Assembly (NCBI GenBank): GCA_023665185.1
Contig: JAMPEL010000004.1
Location: forward strand, 10,489-74,488
Source: Roseburia sp.
GTDB lineage: Bacteria; Bacteroidota; Bacteroidia; Bacteroidales; Bacteroidaceae
Direction of reading: 5' to 3'
DNA: 64,000 nucleotides
The position numbers were made by a program, and so were the translations under genes. How positions within the stretch are numbered: the first letter of the stretch is position 1; each line of letters starts with the position of its first letter. The notes beneath the pieces were generated by a model, which did not search any database, was not told where the DNA came from, and saw only the letters and a program-made list of their open reading frames with translations. Below, piece by piece: positions 1,706-56,966 of this stretch.

Positions 1706-1975
1706 GATTCTTTCCCTGATTTTATCAGGTTGTGTTTTGGATTTCTCTGAATATCTTGCTTTAGTTTGGGATAGGTTTTAGAATAAAGCACATTGTTTTA
1801 TTGTTCTTACAAATGTATACCATACTCATTTTATATGAGTTTGACAAGAACTTTAGGCAAGGAATGAAAAGAAGCTCCTTTCTGCTACGGATGGAAAGAA
1901 ACATTGTAATCGCAAAGCCTCCCTTTTGGACAGCGGAGTCATGACCGTTTTTTTATAGGCGGTGCAGAACAATAA

Positions 1976-2575
1976 TTTGACATTTTGTCAGTTGGCGGAA
2001 AAACTCTGTTTTAACATTTCGGACATTTATTTTTGCTCTGAAATGCACATGAGTTCGCTTTGTATTGTGCTAAGTATCAGATAATCAAATAGATATAATT
2101 TTACCCAAAAAGGTATGGTTTTAGCTCAAAAACCAAGTGTTTGAACCAAAATAGAATATATTGATAATCAATACATTATGATAAAATTCATCTAAAACTG
2201 TGGTTTTTCGCCTTCAAAATCAAAATCTGTTTGGAGAGACGCACAAAACTGTCTGTAAACATAAATTAAGGATTGCCATAGAATATGCACGGTTTTAGCC
2301 CGAAATAAGGACGTTTCAAAACTCGTGCGCCTTGAAAATTTATTTTCAAGGTACACTTCAAAAAATTGCGAGGCGCACGAGTTTTATTTTCACAGTACTC
2401 TAATTTCGGCAAAAACGCGCTCAAATGTAAATAAATGTATCTTTTTAAGACAAAAATTAATACATTTTCACAAGCCATTTTCAATGACAAAAAACCTCCG
2501 TAGAATCGCCTAAATGCAACCGTGGTGGAGTTTGGTTGATTTTGAGCGATTTTACGAGGTTCGGATTTTAACATA
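1976..2575 (+). repeat. Copy A of a ~0.6 kb dispersed noncoding repeat family
   Basis: Shares ordered blocks with 22934..23558 and 55029..55652: tttgacattttgtca, ttttaacatttcgg, ttgataatca (twice), ccttgaaaa, ccgtagaatcgc ... gcgatt(c/t)tacg, cggattttaacat. No credible ORF. Confidence 0.7.
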
Positions 2576-2952
2576 TCATCCATCACAAAAAGCATATTAT
2601 TATTGATATTTTACAGCTTATTGACACAATACAGAGTCTTTGACAGACATTTTGCACCAGCATAAAAAGTTCGACAATCAATTCTTCATGTTTGGCAGAT
2701 ATAGAATCCCTGCTGGATATGGCAATAAAAAATCCACAGAAAGTGTCTGTGAATTTCGCACGGGATTCCCCTTTCTATTCTAATCGCTTGCTCTAAGACA
2801 TATTCCAAACTCACGTAAACCATACAGCCTTGAAGCAAGAGGACCCAACAATCAAAAAGAGGGTATGCGCCGACACGCACACCCTCTTGGCAAATAATCT
2901 AAACTAATACTAAATATTAAGAAAACAATCTTTTACCATTGAAACAAAACCT

Positions 2953-19871: not shown

Positions 19872-20549
19872 ATGAAACGTATAACAATTTCTTTATTGTT
19901 GATACTTGTCACATCCACACTGTGTATGGGACAGTATCGCAAGTCGGTATCTATTCTCGGAGACTCCTACTCCACTTTTGAAGGCTACCTGCAACCGGAC
20001 ACCAACAGGGTGTGGTATTGGAAACAACCAAAGAAGACAGATGTAAACAGTGTCACCCAAACATGGTGGCACAAATTCATCAGCCGCAACGGGTATAAAC
20101 TGTGCGTAAACAACTCTTTCTCAGGAGCGACTATATGCCATACAGGATACAGAAAGGAAGACTATAGCGACCGTTCTTTCATCACCCGCATGAACAACCT
20201 CGGTTGTCCGGACATCATATTCATTTTCGGTGCCACCAACGATTCGTGGGCGAATGTTCCAATGGGTGAGTATAAATATGAGAACTGGACGAAAGAAGAA
20301 CTGTATCAGTTCCGCCCTGCTATGGCATACATGCTGGCAGACATGATAGAACGCTATCCGAATGTAGAACTGCACTTTATCCTAAACAATGAGCTGAGCG
20401 ACAAAATCACAGAGTCGGTGAAAGCTGTATGCGTACACTATGGTGTAGACTGCATTGAGCTTAAGGACATAGACAAGCAGAACGGACACCCTTCCATCAA
20501 AGGAATGGAGCAGATAGCAGAACAAATCGAACAACACCTAAAGATGTAA
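19872..20549 (+). CDS. SGNH/GDSL hydrolase family protein (secreted)
   Basis: Signal peptide, block I ILGDSYST, C-terminal DxxH-like NGHPS. Confidence 0.7.
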   Translation: MKRITISLLLILVTSTLCMGQYRKSVSILGDSYSTFEGYLQPDTNRVWYWKQPKKTDVNSVTQTWWHKFISRNGYKLCVNNSFSGATICHTGYRKEDYSDRSFITRMNNLGCPDIIFIFGATNDSWANVPMGEYKYENWTKEELYQFRPAMAYMLADMIERYPNVELHFILNNELSDKITESVKAVCVHYGVDCIELKDIDKQNGHPSIKGMEQIAEQIEQHLKM

Positions 20550-20679: not shown

Positions 20680-20763
20680 GCCCGAATGGTGGAATGGTAG
20701 ACACGAGGGACTTAAAATCCCTTGGCCATTATGGCTGTGCGGGTTCGAGTCCCGCTTCGGGTA
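20680..20763 (+). tRNA. tRNA-Leu (anticodon TAA)
   Basis: Cloverleaf read by hand: acceptor GCCCGAA/TTCGGGT, anticodon arm AGGGA-CTTAAAA-TCCCT, long variable arm, T arm GCGGG-TTCGAGT-CCCGC. No encoded CCA. Confidence 0.9.
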
Positions 20764-20766
20764 CGG

Positions 20767-22506: not shown

Positions 22507-22933
22507 CGACATCAGACCCATACAAAAGGCTATCCCGAAATTTGGAGCAACAATGGCAATTGCGCTGTATATGCAGAGCCTCGACTTGAAAAAATTGCAG
22601 TATCCCCACCCCAATTGAACCTTTTGCCCTTACTCTATATATTAATGGAAGTCCTACAAGCCCAAACCATTTTCCGTATACACTTGCCAGACAATAATAT
22701 GCAGACGGGGGTTGGTGACACTATGCTATTGGGGTCTGAACGCTGATTTTAGGTTCATCCGGCATTTCGAGTGATACGACACACAGTGTGTATAGCCCTC
22801 ACCAAATATATTACACGTCTCCAGACAAAGGGCATCCATTACATCGCTTGTACATGTTTTATAAACGGAAGTCCTAAAACCCGAACCATTCTGACGCGCG
22901 TAATGCAAGACAACAGTATGCAGGTAAGGAATG

Positions 22934-23558
22934 TTTTGACATTATGTCACTTGGACGTGAAAGGCGAATTTTAACATTTCGGGCGGCTGCCGACTTAGAA
23001 CCGGTACTTGATTTTGAATGTTTTATTGATAAGTCGTTGATAATCAGTTAAATGTATTTTTAGCGAAAAGTACGCGTTTTTTGGCATAAAACGCATGGTC
23101 TGAGTCAAAACAGGATGTATTGATAATCAGTGAGTTATGAGAAATTTGTCTTAAAATAGTCTTTTTCCGGGTTCAAAATCCATTTTTGTTTTTCGGGGCA
23201 TGGAAAAGGCGGCTGTCGTCTTTTTGAGGACGTGATTCGGAAAAATGCCCGATTTTGGGCCGAAAAACGGGCTTTGAAAATTTTGTTCACCTTGAAAATA
23301 AAATTCGTTCACCTTGCGAAAAAAATCAGTGTGCCTTGAAAATAAATTTTCAGCACCTTGTAATTTTGGGTTTTAGTGGGCTTTTGGGTGGGGAAGGTGT
23401 GTTTTGAGGTGAAATTCTATATCTTTTAGTCGGTCGGATTGTCCTGTTTGTCCACTCGGTTTTTAAGGTTCAAAAGCCTCCGTAGAATCGCGTTTTTGCA
23501 ACCTCGGCGGAGTCCGGTTCATTTTGAGGCGATTCTACGGAGGTCGGATTTTAACATT
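22934..23558 (+). repeat. Copy B of the ~0.6 kb dispersed noncoding repeat family
   Basis: Same ordered blocks as copies A and C. TTTTAACAT occurs at 22969 and 23549. Perfect 15-bp terminal hairpin, cctccgtagaatcgc (23477-23491) / gcgattctacggagg (23529-23543). The left-flank unit is also present twice, at about 22643-22712 and 22862-22930. Confidence 0.75.
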
Positions 23559-24017
23559 CACAGTTAAAACAAAAGCAAGCAAAATCATTTATATATCAAC
23601 AAAATATCAGAATATGCAACCTTTTTACTATCATCTACAAACAAACAGCCCACAGACAAATCCCAACAATTGGCAGTTTGTCAGCGTCCGTTATTTGTCA
23701 TAATCCAAATGAATAAATATCCGACAGGATTCTTTCAAATTTATGCCGCCTTATCACTTGAAATGCTGGATGAGCAACAAAGATGCGACATCCACGAGAT
23801 TTAATATAGACTTGGGAGTCAGATTAGCCCAATTCAAAAAAAAGGATTATATTTGCAAGTTAGATGCGATTTGTCACTGACAAACAGACCAAAGATGTGG
23901 AAATACAAACAACATGAAGAGAAGTTCTCTCGTAGTCGCAAAAGGATTGGTCTCCCTGTCAGAGCTGCAAGGGAGTTTCTTGTACACAAAAAAGGAAATA
24001 ATGCTTCTTTCTGAAAT

Positions 24018-24248
24018 ATGAACATAAGTGGTATTGAGATTGCTGTTGAGCGTAAAGCCATTAAGCACATGCATCTGTCGGTATATCCTCCTGATGGACG
24101 TGTGCATCTCAGTGTGCCGCATTCTACCAGCGACGAACAAATCCGTCTGTTCATACTTTCAAAGTGGGTCTGGCTCATAGAGAAACGAGAAGCGGCAACC
24201 AGCCATAAAATCATATACATGGAGATTTGTCCAATCCAGAAGGAATGA
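24018..24248 (+). pseudogene. N-terminal fragment of a YgjP-like (DUF45/M48-type) metallopeptidase
   Basis: MNISGIEIAVERKAIKHMHLSVYPPDGRVHLSVP...FILSKWVWLIEKRE matches the N-terminal third of YgjP-like proteins. The HExxH part is missing. Confidence 0.5.
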
Positions 24249-24637
24249 TCTTCGGATACGGTGACGAACTGGATGAAGATTACAAACGAATATCACGTAT
24301 CAATGATAACGAGTATCTTAGGTTCATGAAATCAGTAAGGTATCTTGAAACAGAAAACTATAGGAAAATGCTGTCCTTCATCGAATCTGCTCCATATCAG
24401 ATATACATTATGGGACATTCTTGCGGAAATTCAGACAGAACGCTATTGAACACGTTGTTTGAACACAGGAACTGTGTGTCCATCAAACCTTTTTATTATG
24501 CGGCAAGCAATGGAACGGACAATTATATGGACATCATTCAAAACATTAGTCGAAACTTTACTGACATGAAATTGATGAGAGACCGTGTCGTAAACAAACA
24601 CCATTGCAAGCAATTACCACAACAGACTCTCAAATAA
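24227..24637 (+). pseudogene. C-terminal fragment of an AbiH-like abortive-infection protein
   Basis: QIYIMGHSCGNSDRTLLNTLFEH resembles the AbiH C-terminal GHS..D motif. The expected N-terminal half is absent. The ORF starts where the YgjP-like fragment ends. Confidence 0.5.
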
Positions 24638-24776
24638 AAGTGAAACAGAGATGGATATGGGTAGATTCAATCTGTGTGCAATACAACTTATCACTTAAAA
24701 TGTCGGATGAACCACAAAAACACCGCCCTTTCGTACATTTTAAATGACAAAATGCCTTTTTATACAAACGATTAGC

Positions 24777-24784
24777 TACTTTTG
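24777..24784 (+). promoter_or_regulatory. Putative -7 box (TACTTTTG) upstream of the M6 protease gene
   Basis: TAnnTTTG match lies 130 nt upstream of ATG 24914, which would mean a long leader. Confidence 0.3.
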
Positions 24785-24913
24785 CAGCCATAACAAGAGA
24801 ACAACGCGCAAACAACCAATATAGGGGGATTACGGACAGCCAAGTAAAAACACATAAGCTATTCATTCCTGCAAGTTGGAACGTATCATTCTCACAACAA
24901 AAATCAAGCAACA

Positions 24914-26787: not shown

Positions 26788-27007
26788 TATCTTTGCAGTG
26801 CATTTGAGAAAGAGTAGAACAACAGCCGGGGTACAGGATCGATTGGGATACTCATCAAATTTTAACTGAAAACCGAGAACGTTTCGTTCTTTAATGGCGG
26901 GCCACGCCTCGAAAGGGGTAACCTTTATGGTCGGTGGATTACAAAGAAGTCCGAACACTCAAATCTTGTTTACTCGGAGTTTCATCACATCTCCTCCCGG
27001 CTTTTTT
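26788..27007 (+). ncRNA. Candidate small structured RNA of unknown identity
   Basis: The -7 box TATCTTTG (26788-26795) is followed by ~200 nt with no ORF. The 5' agccggg (26824) pairs with the 3' cccggct (26995), which is followed by tttttt. Internal hairpins: gaacg/cgttc, ggcg/cgcc, aaagg/ccttt. Confidence 0.3.
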
Positions 27008-27061
27008 ACATAGGAGACTCATGGCTTCATACAAAAGGAATGCCGGAGTCTCTTTTATTAA

Positions 27062-48198: not shown

Positions 48199-49452
48199 TT
48201 ACTTCTTTTTGTTCTTAGCCATACGTTTCTTTTCCATCTCTGGATCAAATCCGTATAAAGCGATGACGTCTTTTACATTTTTGTCAAACTTTCTCACAGT
48301 TTCATATCCAAGAGATAATTTCTTCTCATAATCTTCGTTGTCATAGACAGGACAAACATCAGCTTTCCCCTTACCCTTCTGCTTTTTTCTCATCCACAAA
48401 ATAGGAAGTTTGCAGGCTGTAACATCATCTATGCCATCTTTTGGAGCTGATGGGGTAACAGTAACATTCTTCTTAAAGAATGCCAAGTCTGCAGCTTCAT
48501 AGAATGCGTCGTAAGTCTTATCATATCCTAAAGTAATACCAAGAAGATAAACTGCCACAGAACATTCAAAGCCTCCAATTGTCTTAGCATAAGAGATAAC
48601 TTTTTCGCTTGGCCTATGATCCATTCCATTAGAGAATTTATCCTTTAGGAATAAGAACAATGGCGCAGCTATTGCAAATTTACATCCTGAGACTCGCTCA
48701 GTCTGATGAGACAAAGGCGAAGCTTCTACTAATTTATAAAGAGACGCATACTGTGGATCTTTACATGATATAAGTTGCAGATAAATCTGAGTAGATTCTG
48801 CAACTTCACCATCAAGTTCTTGTTTCTTTAAGAAGTTACAGTACACGTGTATAAAATCGCAGAAAAATCCTATCATATTTTTGGGATAAAAGCTATGGCG
48901 CTCATATCTAAGTAAGTATGTCCAAATAGACAAATCACCAAAAGGACGTTCGTTCGCATATAACTGGCGGAACACTTCTTGGACTGATTCGGGAGTAATT
49001 ATTTCTTCACATTTCTCACGATCCTCCTCAGGCAAATCAAATATTAACCAAAGGTTGTCTATCCCGCGCATGCATTGTTTAATATATAAACTCTGTTGAA
49101 GTTTCTCAAATTTATCCACCCAAGGTGATACATGAAGCTGGATACGCGGATCAAAAGAAATCGACATTTCCTTTTTTGCTTCTTCATCAAAAGTATACAC
49201 ACCACGAACATTTCTAATATCTATCTCGATATATAAACCATTACATTCTTCTGCAATAAAATGAACTATCAAGTACTCAAAAGAGTACCCATACATATTT
49301 ATTCTTGAAGTGAGAGCATCAAATAGTTCTTCGTCATTTGCATGCTCTGATACTAATCCATCAAATGGTACAGCATAGCTAATACGGAACTGACCATATT
49401 TAAATAAGTCGACAAAATCTAACTTACGTATTATTGCTAAGTAATCTTTCAT
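48199..49452 (-). CDS. Orphan 417-aa protein (island gene 3), no recognisable motif
   Basis: Long AT-rich ORF. Start chosen at ATG 49452 because the junction TAATTATG repeats the junction of the preceding gene pair. An alternative ATG is at 49467. Lys-rich C-terminus. Confidence 0.6.
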   Translation of the reverse strand: MKDYLAIIRKLDFVDLFKYGQFRISYAVPFDGLVSEHANDEELFDALTSRINMYGYSFEYLIVHFIAEECNGLYIEIDIRNVRGVYTFDEEAKKEMSISFDPRIQLHVSPWVDKFEKLQQSLYIKQCMRGIDNLWLIFDLPEEDREKCEEIITPESVQEVFRQLYANERPFGDLSIWTYLLRYERHSFYPKNMIGFFCDFIHVYCNFLKKQELDGEVAESTQIYLQLISCKDPQYASLYKLVEASPLSHQTERVSGCKFAIAAPLFLFLKDKFSNGMDHRPSEKVISYAKTIGGFECSVAVYLLGITLGYDKTYDAFYEAADLAFFKKNVTVTPSAPKDGIDDVTACKLPILWMRKKQKGKGKADVCPVYDNEDYEKKLSLGYETVRKFDKNVKDVIALYGFDPEMEKKRMAKNKKK

Positions 49453-49454
49453 AA

Positions 49455-50639
49455 TTAGAAGCCCCAAGTACTATTACCTCCAAATGATGGAGTTTGTATT
49501 GTTGAAGAAATATCTATCTGAGAGCAATTTGATTTGAATGCGTCTAGATAATCGCTAGGACAACCATTATAGGTGATATAGAGATTCTTACGAGTTCGGG
49601 TCATTGCAACCATAAACAAAGTCTTAGCCAATGAATCATTAGGGCTAATATACATGCTTGCATTCGCATATGGTATAAATACGTTTTCAAAGTCAAGACT
49701 TTTGGCACTATGAAATGTCATGATAATGATTCGATGATCATTTTCATCAAAGCTACCATATCCATTACCTATATATTGCATTTTTATACCATTTCTGCGC
49801 AAATGAGAGTTCATTGCACCAAAATCAATTCTTCCCCAGTTGTTTGTTGTTTCAACCCATTCCGGCTTGCCAGCATCACTAAGCGCTTGATTCACGAATT
49901 TAATAATCTTTTGAGCTGTAGGTATAAGAACTGCTGTTGAATCTCCAACATTCACTGCTTTAGTTGCTTGTTCCATTATATATTTTACCTCTTTTGCTTC
50001 AGAAGGTGCGGTACAAAGACGTATTTGCGTATCATCCTTGGTCATATCCCTCTTTGAAGAAAAAATATTCATTCGAGGTAAGAAACGTTGAACAGCATCA
50101 ATAATAGAGCGTGATAATCTATGAATGATGCCCAATTCATAAGGTTCGCCATTAATTAGACGTCCTATTTGCGATGGTGTAACTGTTGCTTCTCTCCAAC
50201 GAGGATCGCTATCATAGATAGATTGATTAGAGTCTCCTGCTACAATTATATTTGAACCGCGAGCATTCATTTCGCAAATAACACGTGGTATCAAATCTTG
50301 TACCTCATCACAAAGAATATAATCATAGTTAGAGCTACCCTTCATAAAACCGTAATACGTATCAATTGTTACTTTCGAATCAAGGCCTAGCTCCTTAAAG
50401 TCTGCCTTAAACATTTCTACAAGTGATTTTGTAAATACAACAACCAAAATACTGGAATCGGGGTTCTTCGCAAGGATTGTCTTTGCTGCATACGCAAGCA
50501 AGACGGACTTTCCAGAACCAGCAAATCCTTGAATCCATTGGTTGCGAAAACTTGTACTATAATTGTTAACAAATGCGCTGACTTTGTCAAGAAAGGCCTG
50601 CTGTTGTGGGTCTAACCTGTTAATTGGAGGAATGTGCAT
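49455..50639 (-). CDS. Compact SF1 (UvrD/Rep-like) helicase-family ATPase (island gene 2)
   Basis: Motif I GFAGSGKS, II CDEVQD, III VAGDSNQSIY, V FHSAKSLDFENVF, VI VAMTRTRKNLYI. Confidence 0.75.
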   Translation of the reverse strand: MHIPPINRLDPQQQAFLDKVSAFVNNYSTSFRNQWIQGFAGSGKSVLLAYAAKTILAKNPDSSILVVVFTKSLVEMFKADFKELGLDSKVTIDTYYGFMKGSSNYDYILCDEVQDLIPRVICEMNARGSNIIVAGDSNQSIYDSDPRWREATVTPSQIGRLINGEPYELGIIHRLSRSIIDAVQRFLPRMNIFSSKRDMTKDDTQIRLCTAPSEAKEVKYIMEQATKAVNVGDSTAVLIPTAQKIIKFVNQALSDAGKPEWVETTNNWGRIDFGAMNSHLRRNGIKMQYIGNGYGSFDENDHRIIIMTFHSAKSLDFENVFIPYANASMYISPNDSLAKTLFMVAMTRTRKNLYITYNGCPSDYLDAFKSNCSQIDISSTIQTPSFGGNSTWGF

Positions 50640-50641
50640 AA

Positions 50642-53050
50642 TTAATATTTTGTTGTTAGCATATTTGTTTTTGTTTTAGATAGATTTTCTGAGTCGTAAT
50701 AAGTATCTCCTTGTGGTCCCGGTGTCGACATACGAATTTCTTTTGCAAAAAGCTTTTCGCCAAGTTCTTCTGCAACACTAGCAAACCAGCCATAAGCATA
50801 ATTAGGCAAAGAATTAGTTTTCCACTGACGAAGATACATGTCATATACTTTCTGAAATTTTTCTTTTGCCCCTGTTTGGTCACCTTCTGACTTTTGAATT
50901 CTACCAAGTTCAATTAGTGCAATATCATGCTCTGGATCCACAGAAATGGCTCTTTGCAAATACTCTTTTGCTCGCTTTGGATCACGGAATCTTAAGGTTG
51001 AACCTAAGTTGGCATTAGCATACTTATGATTAGGATTCTCCTCCAATGCTTTCTCATAGAACTCAATCGCCTTATCTGTCGCTCCTGCGTTATTGTAGAG
51101 CACAGCAATCCCATTATACATATCAGCTTCTGGATATAATTCATTTTGCAGTTCATATGTTTCAGCAGCTTTAAATGTGTGGCCGGCTTTATCATATGCT
51201 CTACGAAGAGCGATAAGCGTTTGTTTTGATGGGATTCCACCATTTAACTCTGCCTCTAGATTAGCTTGCCTTTCTGCTTTTAGTGCGACTCTGTCCTCGG
51301 TACTAAGCTCTTTGTTTGCAAATGGGCTTAGAGGTTCTACATGACATATAACACCCATACATGTAGCTCGCACTATTAACATTTTGTCTGTGTTAACTTC
51401 TATAGCAAGCTCAATAGGACAATTGATAGGGAATCCACGTGGTAAGGTTGATTCTATTTTTATGTTGAACAATAATTTTCTTACATCACCAACACATATA
51501 GGCAACTCTACAACTTTTTGACCATCACGGCTTGTAACCAAATCGTCAATAATAATAGTGTCACAAGGAATTTGTGTTCCTGCAGGTAGAATCACTTTTG
51601 GCCGCTCATCCTTCGTAATAATTAGGATTGGCTCGCTTGAAATCGGTTGGATCAAACACTTATTCATTCCGTTAAACAACAGACTATGTATTGCAGCTCC
51701 TTGCGAAACATGAGTTTGCAGATTAGAAGGAACTAACATTTCAGAATCCTCAAAGTATTTTTTCAATTCTTCTTGAATATAAGGGCTTTGAGCACTTCCA
51801 CCAATAAAGAGAATGTAATCTATTTCCTCTTTCGCAACTTTAGATTTTTTAATGGCACTTTCAATAGGTGAGTAAATGCTGTTATATTCATCCTCACCCT
51901 TAATGCGAGTTGTTTTACTATAACCATTTTTCAAGAAAATGCTTATAGTATCAGTCATTTCCTTATAGGTTAAGTAAAAAGCACTTTGTCTTAACTCGCC
52001 CTTGTTTGTGTAAACGACAACTTCTGATTCTACTGTAGCCTTCATATCACTGTTTTTTACAATAGGCATAACAAATTCAGATGTAAGCATAGCAAGAGAC
52101 TTGTTTATCATTATTTTAAGACGCTCAGCTACTTTATACAATGCGGAAGCTATATACTTCTTTTCATTTGTGCGGAATTGTTCCATTTGCTTGCCATTTG
52201 CTTGCAAAAAGCGAGGCATTAGATAATGGTAAGTTATGTACCGATCAATATCATCACCGCCAAGTTTTGTAAACTTTGATATGGCTATATTTTTTGAGAA
52301 GAAGCCATTCGCACTTTGACCAATTTCCAAAATGGATATATCACATGTTCCACCACCGAAATCAAAAACTAAAACCTTTGAGTTGTAGTCTGGATTTACA
52401 AACATAGGTTGTCCATCTGTCGCACGATAAACTGCATAACTAATGAAAGCCGCATTAGGCTCGTCAATTAAAGCTTGCTTAGAGATTTTCATGTCATTAG
52501 CCATTAACGCATCCAATAAATCCTTACGCTGATTTGCTTCGAAAGATGCAGGAATACTAACTGCATACGATATATCCTTGCTCAATTTATTCTCTTGGCA
52601 ATAGCCTATAATCAAATACTTTAGATATGCGAAAAAGACTCGTGCAGCATCTTTGGGGTTGCGAATATAAAAAGGGGCTGTATTGCGAAGCTCACTTTCA
52701 TAATACTTTGCTCCCAAATCTTCACCAAGTTCCATTTTGAATGAGTACCATATATTTTTTCCTCTTTTAAGGTGATATTTGAGTTGAGACGCTCCTTCTC
52801 CTACAAGAATTTGCTCGTTATTCCACGCTATTACGGATGGAACAATTTCCGAAGAATAAAGAGTTCCGTCAGGTAACTTTTGTTTTAGACGTAATGAATC
52901 CGTGTGAATCAAACAGCCATCTTCATCGTACGATGCTACAGAGACAACAGATGTTGATGTTCCAAAATCAATACCCACATAGGTTTTGCATCGCAGTATT
53001 GCATTATTTCTTACTGCTGGCAAAAAAGATGAAATAGTAATTTTATTCAT
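50642..53050 (-). CDS. Hsp70-family ATPase fused to C-terminal TPR repeats (island gene 1)
   Basis: Start moved to ATG 53050, because the ORF-track start 53257 overlaps the upstream gene. GIDFGTSTS, VFDFGGGTCDIS, ILFIGGSAQSP, then a beta-rich region and three to four TPR-like repeats. Confidence 0.75.
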   Translation of the reverse strand: MNKITISSFLPAVRNNAILRCKTYVGIDFGTSTSVVSVASYDEDGCLIHTDSLRLKQKLPDGTLYSSEIVPSVIAWNNEQILVGEGASQLKYHLKRGKNIWYSFKMELGEDLGAKYYESELRNTAPFYIRNPKDAARVFFAYLKYLIIGYCQENKLSKDISYAVSIPASFEANQRKDLLDALMANDMKISKQALIDEPNAAFISYAVYRATDGQPMFVNPDYNSKVLVFDFGGGTCDISILEIGQSANGFFSKNIAISKFTKLGGDDIDRYITYHYLMPRFLQANGKQMEQFRTNEKKYIASALYKVAERLKIMINKSLAMLTSEFVMPIVKNSDMKATVESEVVVYTNKGELRQSAFYLTYKEMTDTISIFLKNGYSKTTRIKGEDEYNSIYSPIESAIKKSKVAKEEIDYILFIGGSAQSPYIQEELKKYFEDSEMLVPSNLQTHVSQGAAIHSLLFNGMNKCLIQPISSEPILIITKDERPKVILPAGTQIPCDTIIIDDLVTSRDGQKVVELPICVGDVRKLLFNIKIESTLPRGFPINCPIELAIEVNTDKMLIVRATCMGVICHVEPLSPFANKELSTEDRVALKAERQANLEAELNGGIPSKQTLIALRRAYDKAGHTFKAAETYELQNELYPEADMYNGIAVLYNNAGATDKAIEFYEKALEENPNHKYANANLGSTLRFRDPKRAKEYLQRAISVDPEHDIALIELGRIQKSEGDQTGAKEKFQKVYDMYLRQWKTNSLPNYAYGWFASVAEELGEKLFAKEIRMSTPGPQGDTYYDSENLSKTKTNMLTTKY

Positions 53051-53118
53051 GTGTACTAATTGTTTGGTTGTTATTGAATATCCCGTATTTACAACTACAT
53101 TTTTAGGAGTTGCGAAGT

Positions 53119-54606
53119 TTACTCCGAGCCTCCATCTTGAAATTGTGGCTTGATTACTTTCCAATGGCCGCCGAAGTCCGGGCCAATCCTTTGTAGCAGT
53201 CCTTTTTCTCGCAGACCATCTACAATTCGTCTTGTAGCTTTTACCGAAAGACTGCATTCCTCGGCTAATTGTGAAACGCTGATACGAGGATTATCCTTTA
53301 TTAGGTCCAAAATTAGGTCTTGCCCCTGTCTTGCCCCTGTCTTGCCCCTGTCTTGCCCTTCTTCTTGTTTCTTGCTAAATTCCGTACCAGTCCCCCGTCT
53401 TAGGATAGTGGTTTCAGCATCTTTATCTTCTGCAACAGACGTGGCAAATACTGTGGCTTTCATGATGAACGCCACAACATTGTACAAAGGCTCACGAGTA
53501 CCCATAGCTATGAGTTCACGGCACATACGATCAACACCCTCACCAAACTCCTTTACATAATCGTAGGCTTTGAGGTATTCAGCAATCTTAGGATTGCGAG
53601 AGAAGTGGGTATGGCGGATATTGTCAGTGCGAACGATGCCAGGCAGTTTGCCGGGAGTCTCGAACACAATGCGGTCATCAAACATCTTTATTTGGATTTC
53701 CGTTCCTTTGATGCTGTAGTCACGGTGACAAACCGAATTGACCACCATCTCCTGTATCACAAACTTCGGATATTCACGGTCGGTACGGAAGATGCCATTC
53801 TCGCCAAGATAGGAATGTTCCTTTACTTGGGTTTCAAGGTATTCGATAGCCTTTTTTATCTGGTCGAGGATGCGCCCCTCAAAGGTTATGTCCTTGATAA
53901 CGTTCATTTCACGACCGACCTTCTCTTCCGTACCAGCATAGCGGATAAAACGCACACGGGCACGAGGGAAAAAACGCTGGGGATACCTGCCAAAGAGCAG
54001 AATGCAAGCAGTGCTTACCTGCGGAGCATCATTCTTGTAGGTTACAAAGTCCTTGTTCTCAGTGAGATATTCAATGGCGGACTTACCATAGCCGATGCGG
54101 TTCATGTAAGCCTTGACCATATCCATATCAACATCTTCGAGCGTGGCATCGTAAGCTGGACTGTCCTCAAAATAGCGTTCGCCTTTGTCGTACATCAGTC
54201 GGAGACGTTCCTCAAAAGAGAGTTTACGCGACTTGTCGCCTACCCTCCAAAATACCTCATCGGCTTGGTTGGCATGAAGACGTGGACTGGCCGGAACGTT
54301 GATGATTAGAATATGGTTGTCGTTGCCATAGTCGTCAACGCATGGAACAAGGTCGGTATTAACGGTTATACTCGGTACACAAAAATCAAGCGGTGTACGA
54401 AGAATCTCATTGAGATGTGCCGTATCTTGGTCCACTCCTTCAATGCGTCGAGTCTTATCAGAGATACCCACTGCAATCATACCCCCATCGGCATTGGCCA
54501 TAGCCACGATGGTGGTGGCAAGAGCTTTCGGATCTATGTGAATGCTTTTGCAATCAAAGGTCTGCCCTTCGGGCTTCAGACAGAGTTCTTCTATGGTGTA
54601 TCTCAT
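53119..54606 (-). CDS. AlbA_2 (Schlafen-like divergent AAA) / HATPase_c_4-like / C-terminal winged-HTH protein (COG2865-type)
   Basis: N-terminus EGQTFDCKS...AMANADGGMIAVGISD. Central NSVCHRDY...FETPG region. C-terminal wHTH ISVSQLAEECSLSVKATRRIVDGLREKGLL. ATG 54606 preferred over TTG 54633. Confidence 0.75.
   Translation of the reverse strand: MRYTIEELCLKPEGQTFDCKSIHIDPKALATTIVAMANADGGMIAVGISDKTRRIEGVDQDTAHLNEILRTPLDFCVPSITVNTDLVPCVDDYGNDNHILIINVPASPRLHANQADEVFWRVGDKSRKLSFEERLRLMYDKGERYFEDSPAYDATLEDVDMDMVKAYMNRIGYGKSAIEYLTENKDFVTYKNDAPQVSTACILLFGRYPQRFFPRARVRFIRYAGTEEKVGREMNVIKDITFEGRILDQIKKAIEYLETQVKEHSYLGENGIFRTDREYPKFVIQEMVVNSVCHRDYSIKGTEIQIKMFDDRIVFETPGKLPGIVRTDNIRHTHFSRNPKIAEYLKAYDYVKEFGEGVDRMCRELIAMGTREPLYNVVAFIMKATVFATSVAEDKDAETTILRRGTGTEFSKKQEEGQDRGKTGARQGQDLILDLIKDNPRISVSQLAEECSLSVKATRRIVDGLREKGLLQRIGPDFGGHWKVIKPQFQDGGSE
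53318..53361. repeat. 11-bp tandem repeat (gtcttgcccct x3 plus one imperfect copy) inside the AlbA_2-family gene
   Basis: Read directly. It is translated in all three frames as GQDRGKTGARQGQD in the linker before the wHTH. Confidence 0.85.
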
Positions 54607-54611
54607 TGTGG

Positions 54612-54824
54612 TTATTTCCGCTTGGTGTGGCAAATCAACTCGTGAATATCAATGTTTAGCAACTCGGCAATTCGAGCCAATGTATAAAGGTCGGGCTGCG
54701 CGCAATTAGTGCATCACTTGGATACCGTTGCAGGGTCTTTCTGCAAAAACTTTGCAAGCCATTTACTCATTATACCTCGTTCTGCCAGCACTGCTTTGAT
54801 ATGATTCAATTCTGCCAGCCTTAT
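54612..54824 (-). pseudogene. XRE-type HTH regulator remnant with an in-frame TGA and no ATG start
   Basis: Minus-strand frame reads IRLAELNHIKAVLAERGIMSKWLAKFLQKDPATVSK*CTNCAQPDLYTLARIAELLNIDIHELI. The TGA at 54714-54716 sits where XRE proteins have Trp (VSKW). The first codon is ATA. The stop lies 5 nt before the AlbA_2 ATG. Confidence 0.5.
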
Positions 54825-54851: not shown

Positions 54852-55028
54852 TGGCATTTTCTTGAGAAATCCTCATGATTGGGTGGAAAACTGTGAAAAC
54901 GGCAGCAAATTCGCCTCCTCCACACATTCATTATGTCCCTTGTCCACACTTTACATATAATGGAAATATCTTAAAACCCGAATCATTCCTCCGTCCATAT
55001 CGCAGAACAGCTGTATGCGGACAAAAGC

Positions 55029-55652
55029 ATTTTGACATTTTGTCACTTGAAAAGAGAACTCGATTTTAACATTTCGGGCGGTTTGGGATCTTGATTTTTG
55101 GAGCGATTTTTGAGACAACACACATAAATCGTTGATAATCAAACAGTTCCTATTTTGTAAAAAAGTCGCAGTTTTTGATCAAAAACGCATGGGTTTGATC
55201 AAAATAGGGAGTATTGATAATCAGAGAGTTATGAAAATCCGCCGTTAAAATCGCCATTTTTCGGCTTCAAAATCAATCTTTGTTTTTCGGGGTGTGGGAA
55301 AACGATATGTGAAAAGAAATTAAGGATTGTCCGGAAAGATACTCGATTTTAGCCCAAAATGCGGACTGAAAAAATTTCTTTCACCTTGAAAAAAAATTTG
55401 CAAGGTGAAACGCAAAAAATCGGTGCGCCTTACAAAAAAATTTTCAGCACCTTGCAATTTTGGACTTTTGGGCGGTTTGGGGCGGAAAAAGCATGTTTTG
55501 GGATTGATTTATTTTATCTTTTAAAATATAAATTACCTTATTTTTACATTTGAATTTCAAGTTTTGAAAACCGCCGTAGAATCGCTCAAATGCAGCCGAG
55601 GAAAGGTGCAGTCGATTTTGAGCGATTCTACGGGCATCGGGTTTTAACATTT
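55029..55652 (+). repeat. Copy C of the ~0.6 kb dispersed noncoding repeat family
   Basis: Same ordered blocks as copies A and B. TTTTAACAT occurs at 55064 and 55642. Terminal hairpin ccgtagaatcgctcaaa / tttgagcgattctacgg. A shared left-flank unit lies at about 54958-55027. Confidence 0.75.
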
Positions 55653-56121
55653 CAAATTGTCAGACATTTAGCACTTTTCCAAAGAAAATTCAGGAATTTA
55701 GTTGTTTTTTGTGTACACACCGCAACTTGCGACAGCAAACGGATGCTTATTAGTGCGGCATCACTTTTTCAAAGCCCAACGAAGCTGCTCGGCCATGAAC
55801 AGTCGGCTGTCCTTGCCCCACCAGCGTGTCGCCATCATTTTACACCGCAGTTGCCCGGCACGCCCAAGTCATGCAGAAACGGCTAATCACTATATATCAG
55901 TACCATGTTTGCCGACATAAAATTATCAGAGTGGCTTATCAGACTCAACCAAATCGCCATCCATCAGACGAGCGTATTGAAAAAAATGGCGATAACGACC
56001 GAAAGTTACTGAAATAAGTATTTAGAAAGGAAACATGGCAATAACCCCGGTATTCCGACATGCCCGTATGCACTTCCAGTTACTTTTTATAATATAACTC
56101 GCATTCTTCAGAAAAAAGACG

Positions 56122-56159: not shown

Positions 56160-56966
56160 ATGTTACAATTTATAAGTTTTGGAAGTGGAAGTTGTGGAAA
56201 CTGCTACTGTCTTAGCGATGGGAGCTGTTCTATTCTTATTGACGCGGGCATAAGCACCAGACGGCTGAAACGCTATTTTCGCGACTACGGTGTGAATCAG
56301 TCAGCAATATGCGCGCTCATTGTCACACACGACCATGCAGACCATATAAAAGCTGCCGGAAAGGTAAGCGGTGAATTAAAAATACCGGTATATGCCACAA
56401 AACTTGTACATGAGGGGATAAACCGCAATTTCCATGTACGAAACAAGATAGAGGAAACTTATGCACGGACGATTGAGAAGAACGAGACTTTTGAAATCGG
56501 GCAGTTCAAGATTACCCCATTCGAGATTCCGCACGACTCGATGGAGAATGTGGGATATTCCATCGAGCATGAGGGAGAGATTTTCACTATCATGACAGAC
56601 GTGGGGGCACCGACTAACAATGTGAAGCATTACATCTCAATAAGCAACCACCTCGTCATCGAGGCAAATTATGACATGGAGATGCTGGTGAACGGGAAAT
56701 ATCCTCTCCATCTAAAACAAAGGATTATGAGCGGAACGGGGCATCTGTCGAACAGACAGACAGCCGAGGCACTGGCGGAAAACTTCCATGCCGGATTGCG
56801 GAATGTATGGCTGTGCCACCTGAGCGAGGAGAACAACCATCCGGAACTGGCGAGGAAAACAATAGAGCAATATTTACGCTCGTATGGAATCATTGCCGAC
56901 ACCGACTTCACACTGGAGGTGTTGCGCAGAAAGATTCCGACAGGACCTTTCAACATCAGCGAATAA
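56160..56966 (+). CDS. MBL-fold metallo-hydrolase
   Basis: VTHDHADH motif plus downstream His/Asp ligands. Confidence 0.8.
   Translation: MLQFISFGSGSCGNCYCLSDGSCSILIDAGISTRRLKRYFRDYGVNQSAICALIVTHDHADHIKAAGKVSGELKIPVYATKLVHEGINRNFHVRNKIEETYARTIEKNETFEIGQFKITPFEIPHDSMENVGYSIEHEGEIFTIMTDVGAPTNNVKHYISISNHLVIEANYDMEMLVNGKYPLHLKQRIMSGTGHLSNRQTAEALAENFHAGLRNVWLCHLSEENNHPELARKTIEQYLRSYGIIADTDFTLEVLRRKIPTGPFNISE

Follow-up and report, generated by a model that had tools for sequence, protein, structure and literature searches.

We analysed a 64-kb stretch of Bacteroidales DNA with a G+C content of 43% (contig JAMPEL010000004.1 of assembly GCA_023665185.1, positions 10,489 to 74,488 of the forward strand), which is called the window below. 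A long dispersed repeat was found in it. This repeat is an old, high-copy, previously undescribed non-coding mosaic repeat family of an uncultured gut and rumen Bacteroidales clade. We put at about even the chance that it is an interspersed element similar to the bacterial interspersed mosaic elements (BIMEs) and repetitive extragenic palindromes (REPs), acting at the DNA level via ordered boxes, palindromes and an array of boxes phased at 22 bp. Long non-coding repeats are rarely tolerated in bacterial genomes. The family is unusual in that units of 0.65-0.95 kb occur about once per 27 kb, amount to approximately 3% of the genome and are old and fixed, yet the boxes and the 22-bp array have been kept across genera. 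If the boxes bind proteins, the element gives a handle on an unknown DNA-binding system of abundant uncultured rumen and gut Bacteroidales. If it is transcribed, it would be among the largest multi-copy RNA families of bacteria.

Copies of the element in the window

Repeat search, MAFFT, blastn and nhmmer were used to compare the window with itself, the nhmmer profile being made from the window copies. Three stretches on the same strand carried one ordered set of blocks and were named A, B and C. Their E-values were 1e-182 to 1e-233. This bore out the original prediction, which had proposed three copies in the same orientation with common ordered blocks. With the same four methods, no further full copy was found within the 64 kb. 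The positions of the copies and of the internal parts of copy B were as follows.

1866-2581, plus strand: copy A (nhmmer E=6.7e-182; core 1976-2578, from TTTGACA to the second TTTTAACAT)
22605-22751, plus strand: fourth copy, 5' fragment alone (nhmmer profile positions 44-191, E=1.1e-5; blastn 65.5% over 116 nt)
22790-23564, plus strand: copy B (nhmmer E=4.7e-225; core 22934-23558)
22934-22977, plus strand: 5' module of copy B (TTTTGACATTATGTCA palindrome at 22934-22949; first TTTTAACAT at 22969-22977)
23037-23046 and 23120-23129, plus strand: TTGATAATCA boxes of copy B, flanking an imperfect palindrome that is capped by a small hairpin, GCGTTTTTTG / CATAAAACGC
23288-23360, plus strand: array of copy B, four CACCTTG-type boxes (starts 23288, 23310, 23332 and 23354; Tandem Repeats Finder period 22)
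23477-23557, plus strand: 3' module of copy B (GTAG-foot hairpin CCTCCGTAGAATCGC / GCGATTCTACGGAGG, then the second TTTTAACAT at 23549-23557)
54881-55658, plus strand: copy C (nhmmer E=1.5e-233; core 55029-55654)

Whole-unit pairwise identity among A, B and C was 55-65%. All of the blocks that had been listed from the sequence were found where they had been placed, namely the TTTGACATTWTGTCA palindrome, TTTTAACATTTCGG, the two TTGATAATCA boxes, the CACCTTG units, the hairpin and the second TTTTAACAT. The distances between the two TTTTAACAT boxes, 557, 580 and 578 nt in A, B and C, also agreed. The arms of the terminal hairpin of copy B (23477-23491 and 23529-23543) were 15 nt long and 100% complementary; the CCGTAGAATCGC / GCGATTCTACGG arms measured 15 nt in B and 17 nt in C, and were 100% complementary in both.

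The similarity between B and C had been said to continue to the left of the core. It was extended by approximately 81-84 nt with blastn, and the profile placed the starts of the units at 22790 and 54881. A duplicated left unit had also been described for copy B. The sequence was real, but it was identified as the 5' fragment of the fourth copy at 22605-22751, which consists of the left unit and the TTTGACA module and stops near the position of the first TTTTAACAT. The fragment was also considered as an internally deleted copy with 3' sequence, and this was rejected because the match was just 11 nt.

The three copies lay in different settings. Copy A was flanked by a convergent gene pair. Copy B was placed after pabB/pabC, within 2.3 kb that are missing from a relative (L010, described below). 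Copy C was located between a divergent pair, a Schlafen/AlbA_2 gene and a gene for a metallo-beta-lactamase (MBL) fold hydrolase.

Copies outside the window and their number

Relatives of the window were reached via proteins neighbouring the copies. A fifth copy, of the window type, was found in the species of the window itself, at one end of a different contig (GCA_023666375.1, locus L097); it was reached by a sensitive protein search with a spurious open reading frame (ORF) of copy A. Relatives that carry the MBL-fold gene with an identity of at least 90% (L013-L022) had nhmmer matches, weak but significant, to a diverged element at other loci. This diverged form, named L-type, was found in rumen metagenome-assembled genomes (MAGs), rumen metagenomes and one rodent-gut sample by a search with a spurious in-copy protein. 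A 42-nt pattern from the L-type 5' module was then scanned against the JGI metagenomes. It matched 68 contig stretches, all from one sample, a gut co-assembly of Desmarest's spiny pocket mouse. At least 91 distinct full or end-truncated copies were present across the 68 loci of this metagenome. A metagenome scan with the window-type 5' motif pair gave no match. It had been proposed that absence from all relatives would point to a local duplication only. The element was present in relatives, as L-type copies in related rumen MAGs and in the rodent-gut metagenome, and its site occupancy differed between genera.

The spacing was approximately 27 kb per copy by a censoring-aware estimate, which agreed with three copies per 64 kb. 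This spacing implied roughly 100-200 copies per genome, or about 3% of the genome. Neighbouring copies had the same orientation in 11 cases and the opposite orientation in 12. The copies were intergenic, in any intergenic class and in either orientation, and the flanking genes were housekeeping genes. For the 39 copies with both neighbours called, the context was divergent in 19, convergent in 8 and tandem in 12 (7 co-oriented and 5 anti-oriented). For neighbours with a clean gene call, the unique DNA between a copy and the start of a divergent upstream gene measured at least 136 nt.

Short-read contigs of the window species ended within copies. Contig L009 stops at window position 23520, and L097 ends inside its copy. 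Several independent samples (L018-L022) yielded 5.5-kb contigs with the same ends, inside or beside repeats. The repeat family explains the short-read assembly breaks that occur every 5-14 kb in these organisms. A family of signal-peptide proteins of up to approximately 1366 aa was observed near copies in 7 of the 68 metagenome loci, including L069 (6251-10351). It was the sole multi-copy real protein family at those loci, and the link may reflect its abundance.

Common architecture and conservation

The copies were aligned with MAFFT in two sets, one of 13 copies (A4) and one of 42 copies (A5); these alignments were structure-unaware, and weak covariation may escape them. The unit was 0.65-0.78 kb long in the window species and 0.82-0.95 kb in the L-type of related genera, and the order of the modules was identical in both lineages. 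Seven modules were distinguished. The first three are the left unit, a TTTGACA box and, about 33 nt on, a TTTAACAY box. The fourth is an imperfect palindrome of approximately 110 nt, whose arms start and end with TGATAATCA / TGATTAT. The fifth is the central array of four to six short boxes at 22-bp phasing. The sixth is a hairpin with a GTAG foot, and the seventh is the second TTTTAACAT box. The 3' module contains CGTAGAATC, CATTTTGA and TTTTAACAT.

Conservation was block-wise. It reached 95-98% in the 5' module (TTTGACAAAATGATATTTTCGCCCAAAATGAAAATTTAACAC) and 92-94% in the 3' module, and was 54-58% in the segment after the 3' module. Across genera, invariant boxes of 7-9 nt were separated by intervening sequence that was just 54-70% conserved. 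The boxes conserved across genera were TTTGACA, TTTAACAY, two TGATAATCA, CGTAGAATC and the second TTTTAACAT. TTTGACA and TTTAACA were invariant in 13 of 13 and 42 of 42 aligned copies, and the TTGATAATCA boxes were kept across genera in the 13-copy alignment. TAGAATC started the 3' hairpin in both lineages, the exceptions being copies with TAAAATC. The frequency of GTAG was estimated to be no higher than expected from base composition. The pair TTGTAGCGCACTG...CAGTGCGCT was present in the central array.

The L-type had features of its own. Its 3' hairpin had no distal arm, and a local AGAAT-CCCC-ATTCT hairpin stood in its place. It also carried TTTGACAAAATCA, a variable segment of roughly 50 nt, CATTTTGTCAAA in inverted form and a conserved tail with TTTTTTTATGG at its end. 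The left boundary of the repeat unit was fuzzy, and in the L-type an upstream hairpin with a 20-bp stem was found in many copies. A second short hairpin repeat, GGATGTATTCGACAGACTCC ... GGAGTCTGTCGAATACATCC, with a stem of approximately 20 bp, was observed 45-110 nt 5' of the L-type TTTGACA (L077, L062, L091 and L090). It also occurred 3' of some copies, at 10700-10800 in L024 and at about 4560-4620 in L028. This hairpin may be a family of its own, similar to REPs, or it may form the outermost module of the unit.

The variants of the modules were reassorted among the copies. Two variants of the central array paired freely with two variants of the 3' tail. This free combination fits recombination or gene conversion between copies, and this exchange may help keep the boxes alike. 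A recombination hotspot, which the original prediction had also put forward, is one possible reading.

The array phased at 22 bp

In copy B and the L097 copy, the array consisted of four direct CACCTTG-type boxes whose starts were exactly 22 bp apart. In copy C, one box was inverted and lay about 3 bp off the 22-bp grid. In the L-type, five to six units of 22 nt made up the array, with CAGYGCRCTG as their near-palindromic core and a spacing of 21-23 bp; the L-type unit CAGTGCGCTG, repeated five times, was the counterpart of CACCTTG, repeated four times, in the window type. The 22-bp periodicity of AA/TT had a power of 2.9, and the maximum in shuffles was 0.32. The sequence of the box was thus specific to the lineage (CACCTTG versus CAGYGCRCTG) and its orientation varied, and the phasing was kept. 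Since 22 bp is two helical turns, the boxes of the array are all on one face of the DNA. Phasing that is kept while the sequence and orientation of the boxes vary would be the behaviour of protein-binding sites on one helix face, not of RNA helices.

Age and site occupancy

The 36 full copies of one sample were 65-82% identical, with a median of 73%. The closest pair was 82% identical, which meant that the loci were distinct and that recent amplification was absent. One orthologous copy could be compared between a rumen MAG and the rodent sample; it was 98.5% identical, and its flanks were 99.0% identical.

Occupied and empty sites were found between genera. In the relative GCA_011262095.1 (L010), pabC is followed directly by an M6 peptidase gene, so window positions 22507-24825, including copy B, are extra DNA. 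Conversely, an L-type copy separates an inositol-phosphate synthase gene from the next one, and at this site the window has only a 245-bp spacer. The different occupancy of sites between genera argues for putative past mobility of the element.

A rearrangement was observed near two of the copies. The genes for a GDSL-like lipase and the MBL-fold hydrolase are 455 bp apart in L013 (8868-10822) and 35.6 kb apart in the window (19872-20549 and 56160-56966). Copies B and C are near both edges of the intervening block, and the rearrangement breakpoints may involve the repeats.

The ends of the unit were examined for signs of transposition. Subterminal inverted boxes only were found; in the L-type, AATTTGACAAAATGATA and TATCATTTTGTCAAA lie 25 and 45-60 nt inside the conserved unit. 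In window copies A and B, there was no subterminal inverted box at the 3' end. No autonomous relative was found, as the L-type 5'-module matches all ran into the same non-coding body. Among 71 L-type 5'-module matches that could be followed, 0 of 71 lacked the rest of the element, and early ends were the ends of loci. We also rejected a composite model, with an insert of 625 nt inside a palindromic host element of smaller size, because no empty host element occurred in 1 Mb. The suggestion that the element is MITE-like (miniature inverted-repeat transposable element) held in a broad sense, through the occupied and empty sites across genera. It did not hold for terminal inverted repeats, an autonomous relative or near-identical copies, none of which was found.

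Coding potential and database searches

The longest sense-strand ORF in the window copies was at most 67 aa, in line with the earlier statement that none of the copies has a credible ORF. In some L-type copies, sense-strand ORFs of 90-154 aa were called; they were approximately 46-67% identical to each other when two from the same locus were excluded. ORFs of 114-116 aa in some copies were frameshifted in the orthologous copies of close strains. There was no period-3 substitution signal anywhere in the alignments (power ratio 2.2 or less), and no precomputed Pfam domain was found on the predicted in-copy peptides. The repeat is the source of spurious 'hypothetical proteins' in public databases (P0155-P0175).

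The element had not been recognised as a known Rfam family, and the covariance-model search agreed with this. With 4227 Rfam families, no match over the elements reached the gathering score. At E<=10, copy B gave chance-level matches only. One L-type copy gave sub-threshold matches to plant miRNA precursors only, on both strands, and the central region looks like a generic long hairpin and nothing more. Neither the window type nor the L-type had blastn similarity in 72,556 plasmids or 50,697 phage records, and the IMG/VR scans gave no match. Nothing relevant on the family or its motifs was found in the literature.

Proposed origin and action at the DNA level

On the reading that we favour at about even chances, the element probably spread long ago as non-autonomous mobile DNA, by a putative transposition, and would now be fixed at its sites. 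The boxes would be kept alike by selection, by gene conversion between copies, or by both. Proteins would bind the boxes, and the 22-bp array would be the target of a factor with lineage-dependent specificity. BIMEs are bound by the host proteins gyrase and IHF.

Several results weighed against this proposal. Some concerned mobility. No young copies were present among those compared, and mobility was read from cross-genus occupancy alone. Terminal inverted repeats were absent at the very ends of the element. A target-site duplication was not definable, as the filled and empty pairs were cross-genus and their joints were too diverged to align. No transposase partner was found, and no transposase family was enriched in 664 kb around the copies by ORF clustering. 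The HUH-Y1 motif was absent by regular expression in the 1.03 Mb examined, REP-associated tyrosine transposases (RAYTs) being usually single-copy. In addition, purely selfish DNA would not be expected to stay conserved block by block in copies of such age. Other results concerned RNA. For the central palindrome of the L-type, the sense strand was the more stable one in 34 of 42 copies (p=1.6e-5) and had more G-U pairs, and a conserved G-T pair links box 1 and box 5. The sense-strand bias and the G-T pair may reflect selection for an RNA hairpin. A few paired changes were also seen in the variant-2 stem, ATCTAC/GTAGAT versus AACTAC/GTAGTT, and the CGCG-class arms co-occurred.

Other readings of the element

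The original prediction had named a structured RNA gene family first among its explanations. In such a family, independently transcribed structured non-coding RNA genes of approximately 0.6-0.8 kb would be present in many copies, with hairpins as RNA helices and boxes as RNA motifs or protein sites. We regard this as possible, on the doubtful side. The module order is fixed and orientation-specific, and the copies keep their distance of at least 136 nt from neighbouring gene starts. Single copies folded into long hairpins; the energy was -35 to -84 kcal/mol over the central 150 nt and -14 to -36 kcal/mol in the first palindrome, and the sense preference of the central hairpin described above also speaks for RNA. 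In three long inverted repeats, G-U pairs exceeded A-C pairs by approximately 3:1; the TGATAATCA pair was the opposite, with more A-C than G-U. Copy B had a fold z of -4.15 on the plus strand versus -0.78 on the minus strand, but this was not family-wide.

However, the tests made at the level of the family did not agree with an RNA gene. RNAalifold gave -11 kcal/mol for 13 copies, with a covariation term of -0.31. For 42 copies it gave -18 kcal/mol on the plus strand and -31 kcal/mol on the minus strand, which was thus the better one. In each of six blocks the consensus energy was about 0 kcal/mol. In the duplex cross-test, the arms of a copy paired with each other no better than with arms from other copies, so the covariation of the arms was not copy-specific. 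A 'robust covariation' of the central hairpin had been suggested by the folds of single copies; it was weakened by this cross-test and by the loose association between the spacer types of the two arms, and a few paired changes remained. The strand that folded more stably over the whole element was antisense in 35 of 42 L-type copies and sense in window copies B and C. This whole-element strand asymmetry was rejected as evidence for RNA, because the favoured strand differs by lineage and tracks base composition. The Bacteroidetes -7 box (TAnnTTTG) did not occur at a conserved position on either strand of the 42 copies, and scans for sigma-70 promoters and terminators gave no more sites than in shuffles. 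There was also no Rfam match. Finally, the central boxes of B and L097 are four direct repeats, which are unable to form a hairpin. The RNA reading was therefore weakened by these results, and the claim of a structured RNA gene was not upheld by the near-zero consensus energies, the -7 box that is not conserved, the reversal of the fold asymmetry and the direct repeats of B and L097.

Another view keeps the DNA level and changes the purpose. The copies would be approximately 100-200 nucleoprotein assembly sites of about 0.8 kb, placed every 27 kb or so, that serve the host and are not selfish relics. A lineage-specific protein would load on the array, and other factors would load on TGATAATCA, the TTTRACA boxes and the palindromes. 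These sites may have a role in chromosome folding, domain boundaries or the control of replication and segregation. Such a function would account for the block-wise conservation in near-saturated copies and for the cross-genus box motifs. We consider it unlikely.

It is quite unlikely, in our estimate, that the element is the relic of an integrative element, with an insert of approximately 570 nt between TTTTAACAT recombination cores, of the HUH type (IS200/IS605, RAYT-like) or the tyrosine-recombinase type. This reading takes up the invariant direct repeat TTTAACAY at both ends of all copies in both lineages, and a hairpin is found 5' of each box. As in REPs (PMC3733652), GTAG stands at the foot of the 3' hairpin. 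The fragment at 22605-22751 stops close to the first box, and a TnpA-REP subclass, 2.6, occurs mostly in Bacteroidetes (PMC6006769). However, conservation continues outside the boxes at unrelated loci, in TTTGACA and the left unit and, in the L-type, over 130 nt downstream. None of the 71 followable matches occurred without the rest of the element, the 'empty' joint of the flanks was absent from 1 Mb, and no HUH-Y1 gene was found by regular expression in the 1.03 Mb. No recombinase gene stood beside the copies, among the genes called or scanned there. The 9-bp TTTTAACAT pair had been proposed as the boundary of such a relic. The pair is kept in all copies and between genera, so it belongs to the element and is not a target-site duplication. 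It is internal to the unit, and this proposal was not sustained.

Origins of the iteron type, or relics of partition sites, were considered as well, with a Rep- or ParB-like protein of an integrated plasmid-like element acting on the array. The four to six boxes at 22-bp spacing, the A/T tracts phased at 22 bp and the lineage-specific box sequence are in keeping with this. However, there are approximately 100 copies per chromosome, each amid housekeeping genes. No rep or par gene was found beside the copies among the genes called or scanned there, and plasmid, phage and IMG/VR searches gave no match. This origin is highly improbable.

Decay from a protein-coding gene or an insertion sequence (IS) is almost certainly the wrong explanation: the mutually similar sense ORFs of some L-type copies would suit it, but the frameshifts between orthologues and the lack of a period-3 signal, of Pfam domains and of window sense ORFs longer than 67 aa show no trace of a gene, so the decayed gene or IS that was to refute the prediction was not found.

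Comparison with known systems

The element was compared with BIMEs, REPs and REPINs of enterobacteria and pseudomonads. It resembles them in being high-copy, intergenic and non-coding, with palindromes and conserved linker motifs in a set order. It also shares GTAG at the hairpin foot, G-T pairs in the stems, long persistence and vertical inheritance. In contrast, it measures 0.65-0.95 kb with seven fixed modules, and those repeats measure 30-300 bp. The 22-bp phased array is a feature of the element and not of BIMEs. Its copies are 65-82% alike (median 73%), whereas REPINs form a population of a near-identical 'master sequence'. No RAYT was found for the element, by a regular expression for HUH...Y in 1.03 Mb, with the reservation that RAYTs are usually single-copy. 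By the definition of Di Nocera et al. (2013, PMC3733652), a REP is a short palindrome that carries a conserved GTAG (or CGTC) tag on one side. A GTAG-tagged palindrome of this type was present in the element, and the unit size and master sequence of REPINs were not found. REPs lie mostly downstream of coding regions (PMC3733652), whereas the element was commonest between divergent genes (19 of 39). Quentin et al. (2018, PMC6006769) describe TnpA-REP subclass 2.6 as mostly from Bacteroidetes and as having 'atypical secondary structures' that are repeated in the genome.

BOX of Streptococcus pneumoniae, Correia/CREE and ERIC have a similar layout, with a 5' module, variable short internal repeats and a 3' module. 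They are likewise non-coding, dispersed, hairpin-forming and without a transposase of their own. However, they are 100-600 bp long, with terminal inverted repeats or defined ends and many near-identical copies. The element has no terminal inverted repeats, no definable target duplication and no young copies, and the sequences are unrelated.

Plasmid iterons, for example those of R6K and pPS10, are 22 bp long. The arrays of R6K, pPS10, RK2 and P1 are similar to that of the element in their four to six boxes at 22 bp, A/T-rich flanks and box sequences that differ between lineages. Such differences are expected under co-evolution with a binding protein. The spacing of iterons, direct boxes at 17-22 bp with helical phasing, was found in the element, and an adjacent rep gene and a plasmid or phage context were not. 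The element differs in being chromosomal, with approximately 100 copies per genome, no rep seen nearby, no plasmid or phage homology and variable box orientation.

The large RNAs OLE, GOLLD, ROOL and HEARO/omega RNA share a length of approximately 600-800 nt, an orientation-specific architecture and several long hairpins in single sequences. The element differs from them in having no Rfam match, consensus structure, conserved promoter box or associated protein gene, and in its roughly 100 copies per genome. The palindrome-associated transposable elements (PATEs) of IS200/IS605 resemble the element in being non-coding and a few hundred nt long, with subterminal hairpins and a short conserved motif on the 3' side of these. 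They have neither terminal inverted repeats nor a target duplication; terminal inverted repeats are absent from the element as well, and its target duplication was not definable. In contrast, the left motif of the element is 3' and not 5' of its hairpin, and conservation extends beyond the motifs. Its two hairpins are unrelated (TGACA/TGTCA versus GTAGAATCGC), and no parent IS, tnpA or tnpB was found. Because the element departed from the defining features of MITEs, classical REPs and BIMEs, iteron origins, PATEs and Rfam families, it was assigned to no named family and is described as a bacterial interspersed non-coding repeat.

Other features of the window

Three RNA genes were annotated in the window.

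20680-20764: tRNA-Leu(TAA), just 5' of pabB
26827-27008: Bacteroidales-1 (6S-like) RNA gene, 134.7 bits
27062-27150: tRNA-Ser(CGA), 54 nt after the Bacteroidales-1 RNA

To the right of copy B, positions 23600-24900 resembled gene debris. They contained a YgjP-like fragment of 76 aa (24018-24248), an AbiH C-terminal fragment of 136 aa (24227-24637) and a doubtful 128-aa ORF on the opposite strand. A gene cluster of a possible defence type was located left of copy C, on the minus strand at 48199-54633. It encodes a Schlafen/AlbA_2-HATPase-wHTH protein with a PADLOC match to a pAgo-labelled model (3e-37), an 871-aa HSP70-like ATPase with TPR, a 394-aa UvrD/GajB-like helicase and a 422-aa protein without a family. 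A perfect 11-nt tandem repeat, GTCTTGCCCCT, is present in 3.8 copies at 53317-53358, in the 3' part of the Schlafen/AlbA_2 ORF. As 11 is not divisible by three, the reading frame would shift with each unit gained or lost, and this is a possible phase-variation site. At the left end of the window, a 539-aa ORF without a Pfam match (14-1633) contains a 300-nt direct repeat (300-599 and 894-1193) with 81% identity between its two copies, 594 nt apart.

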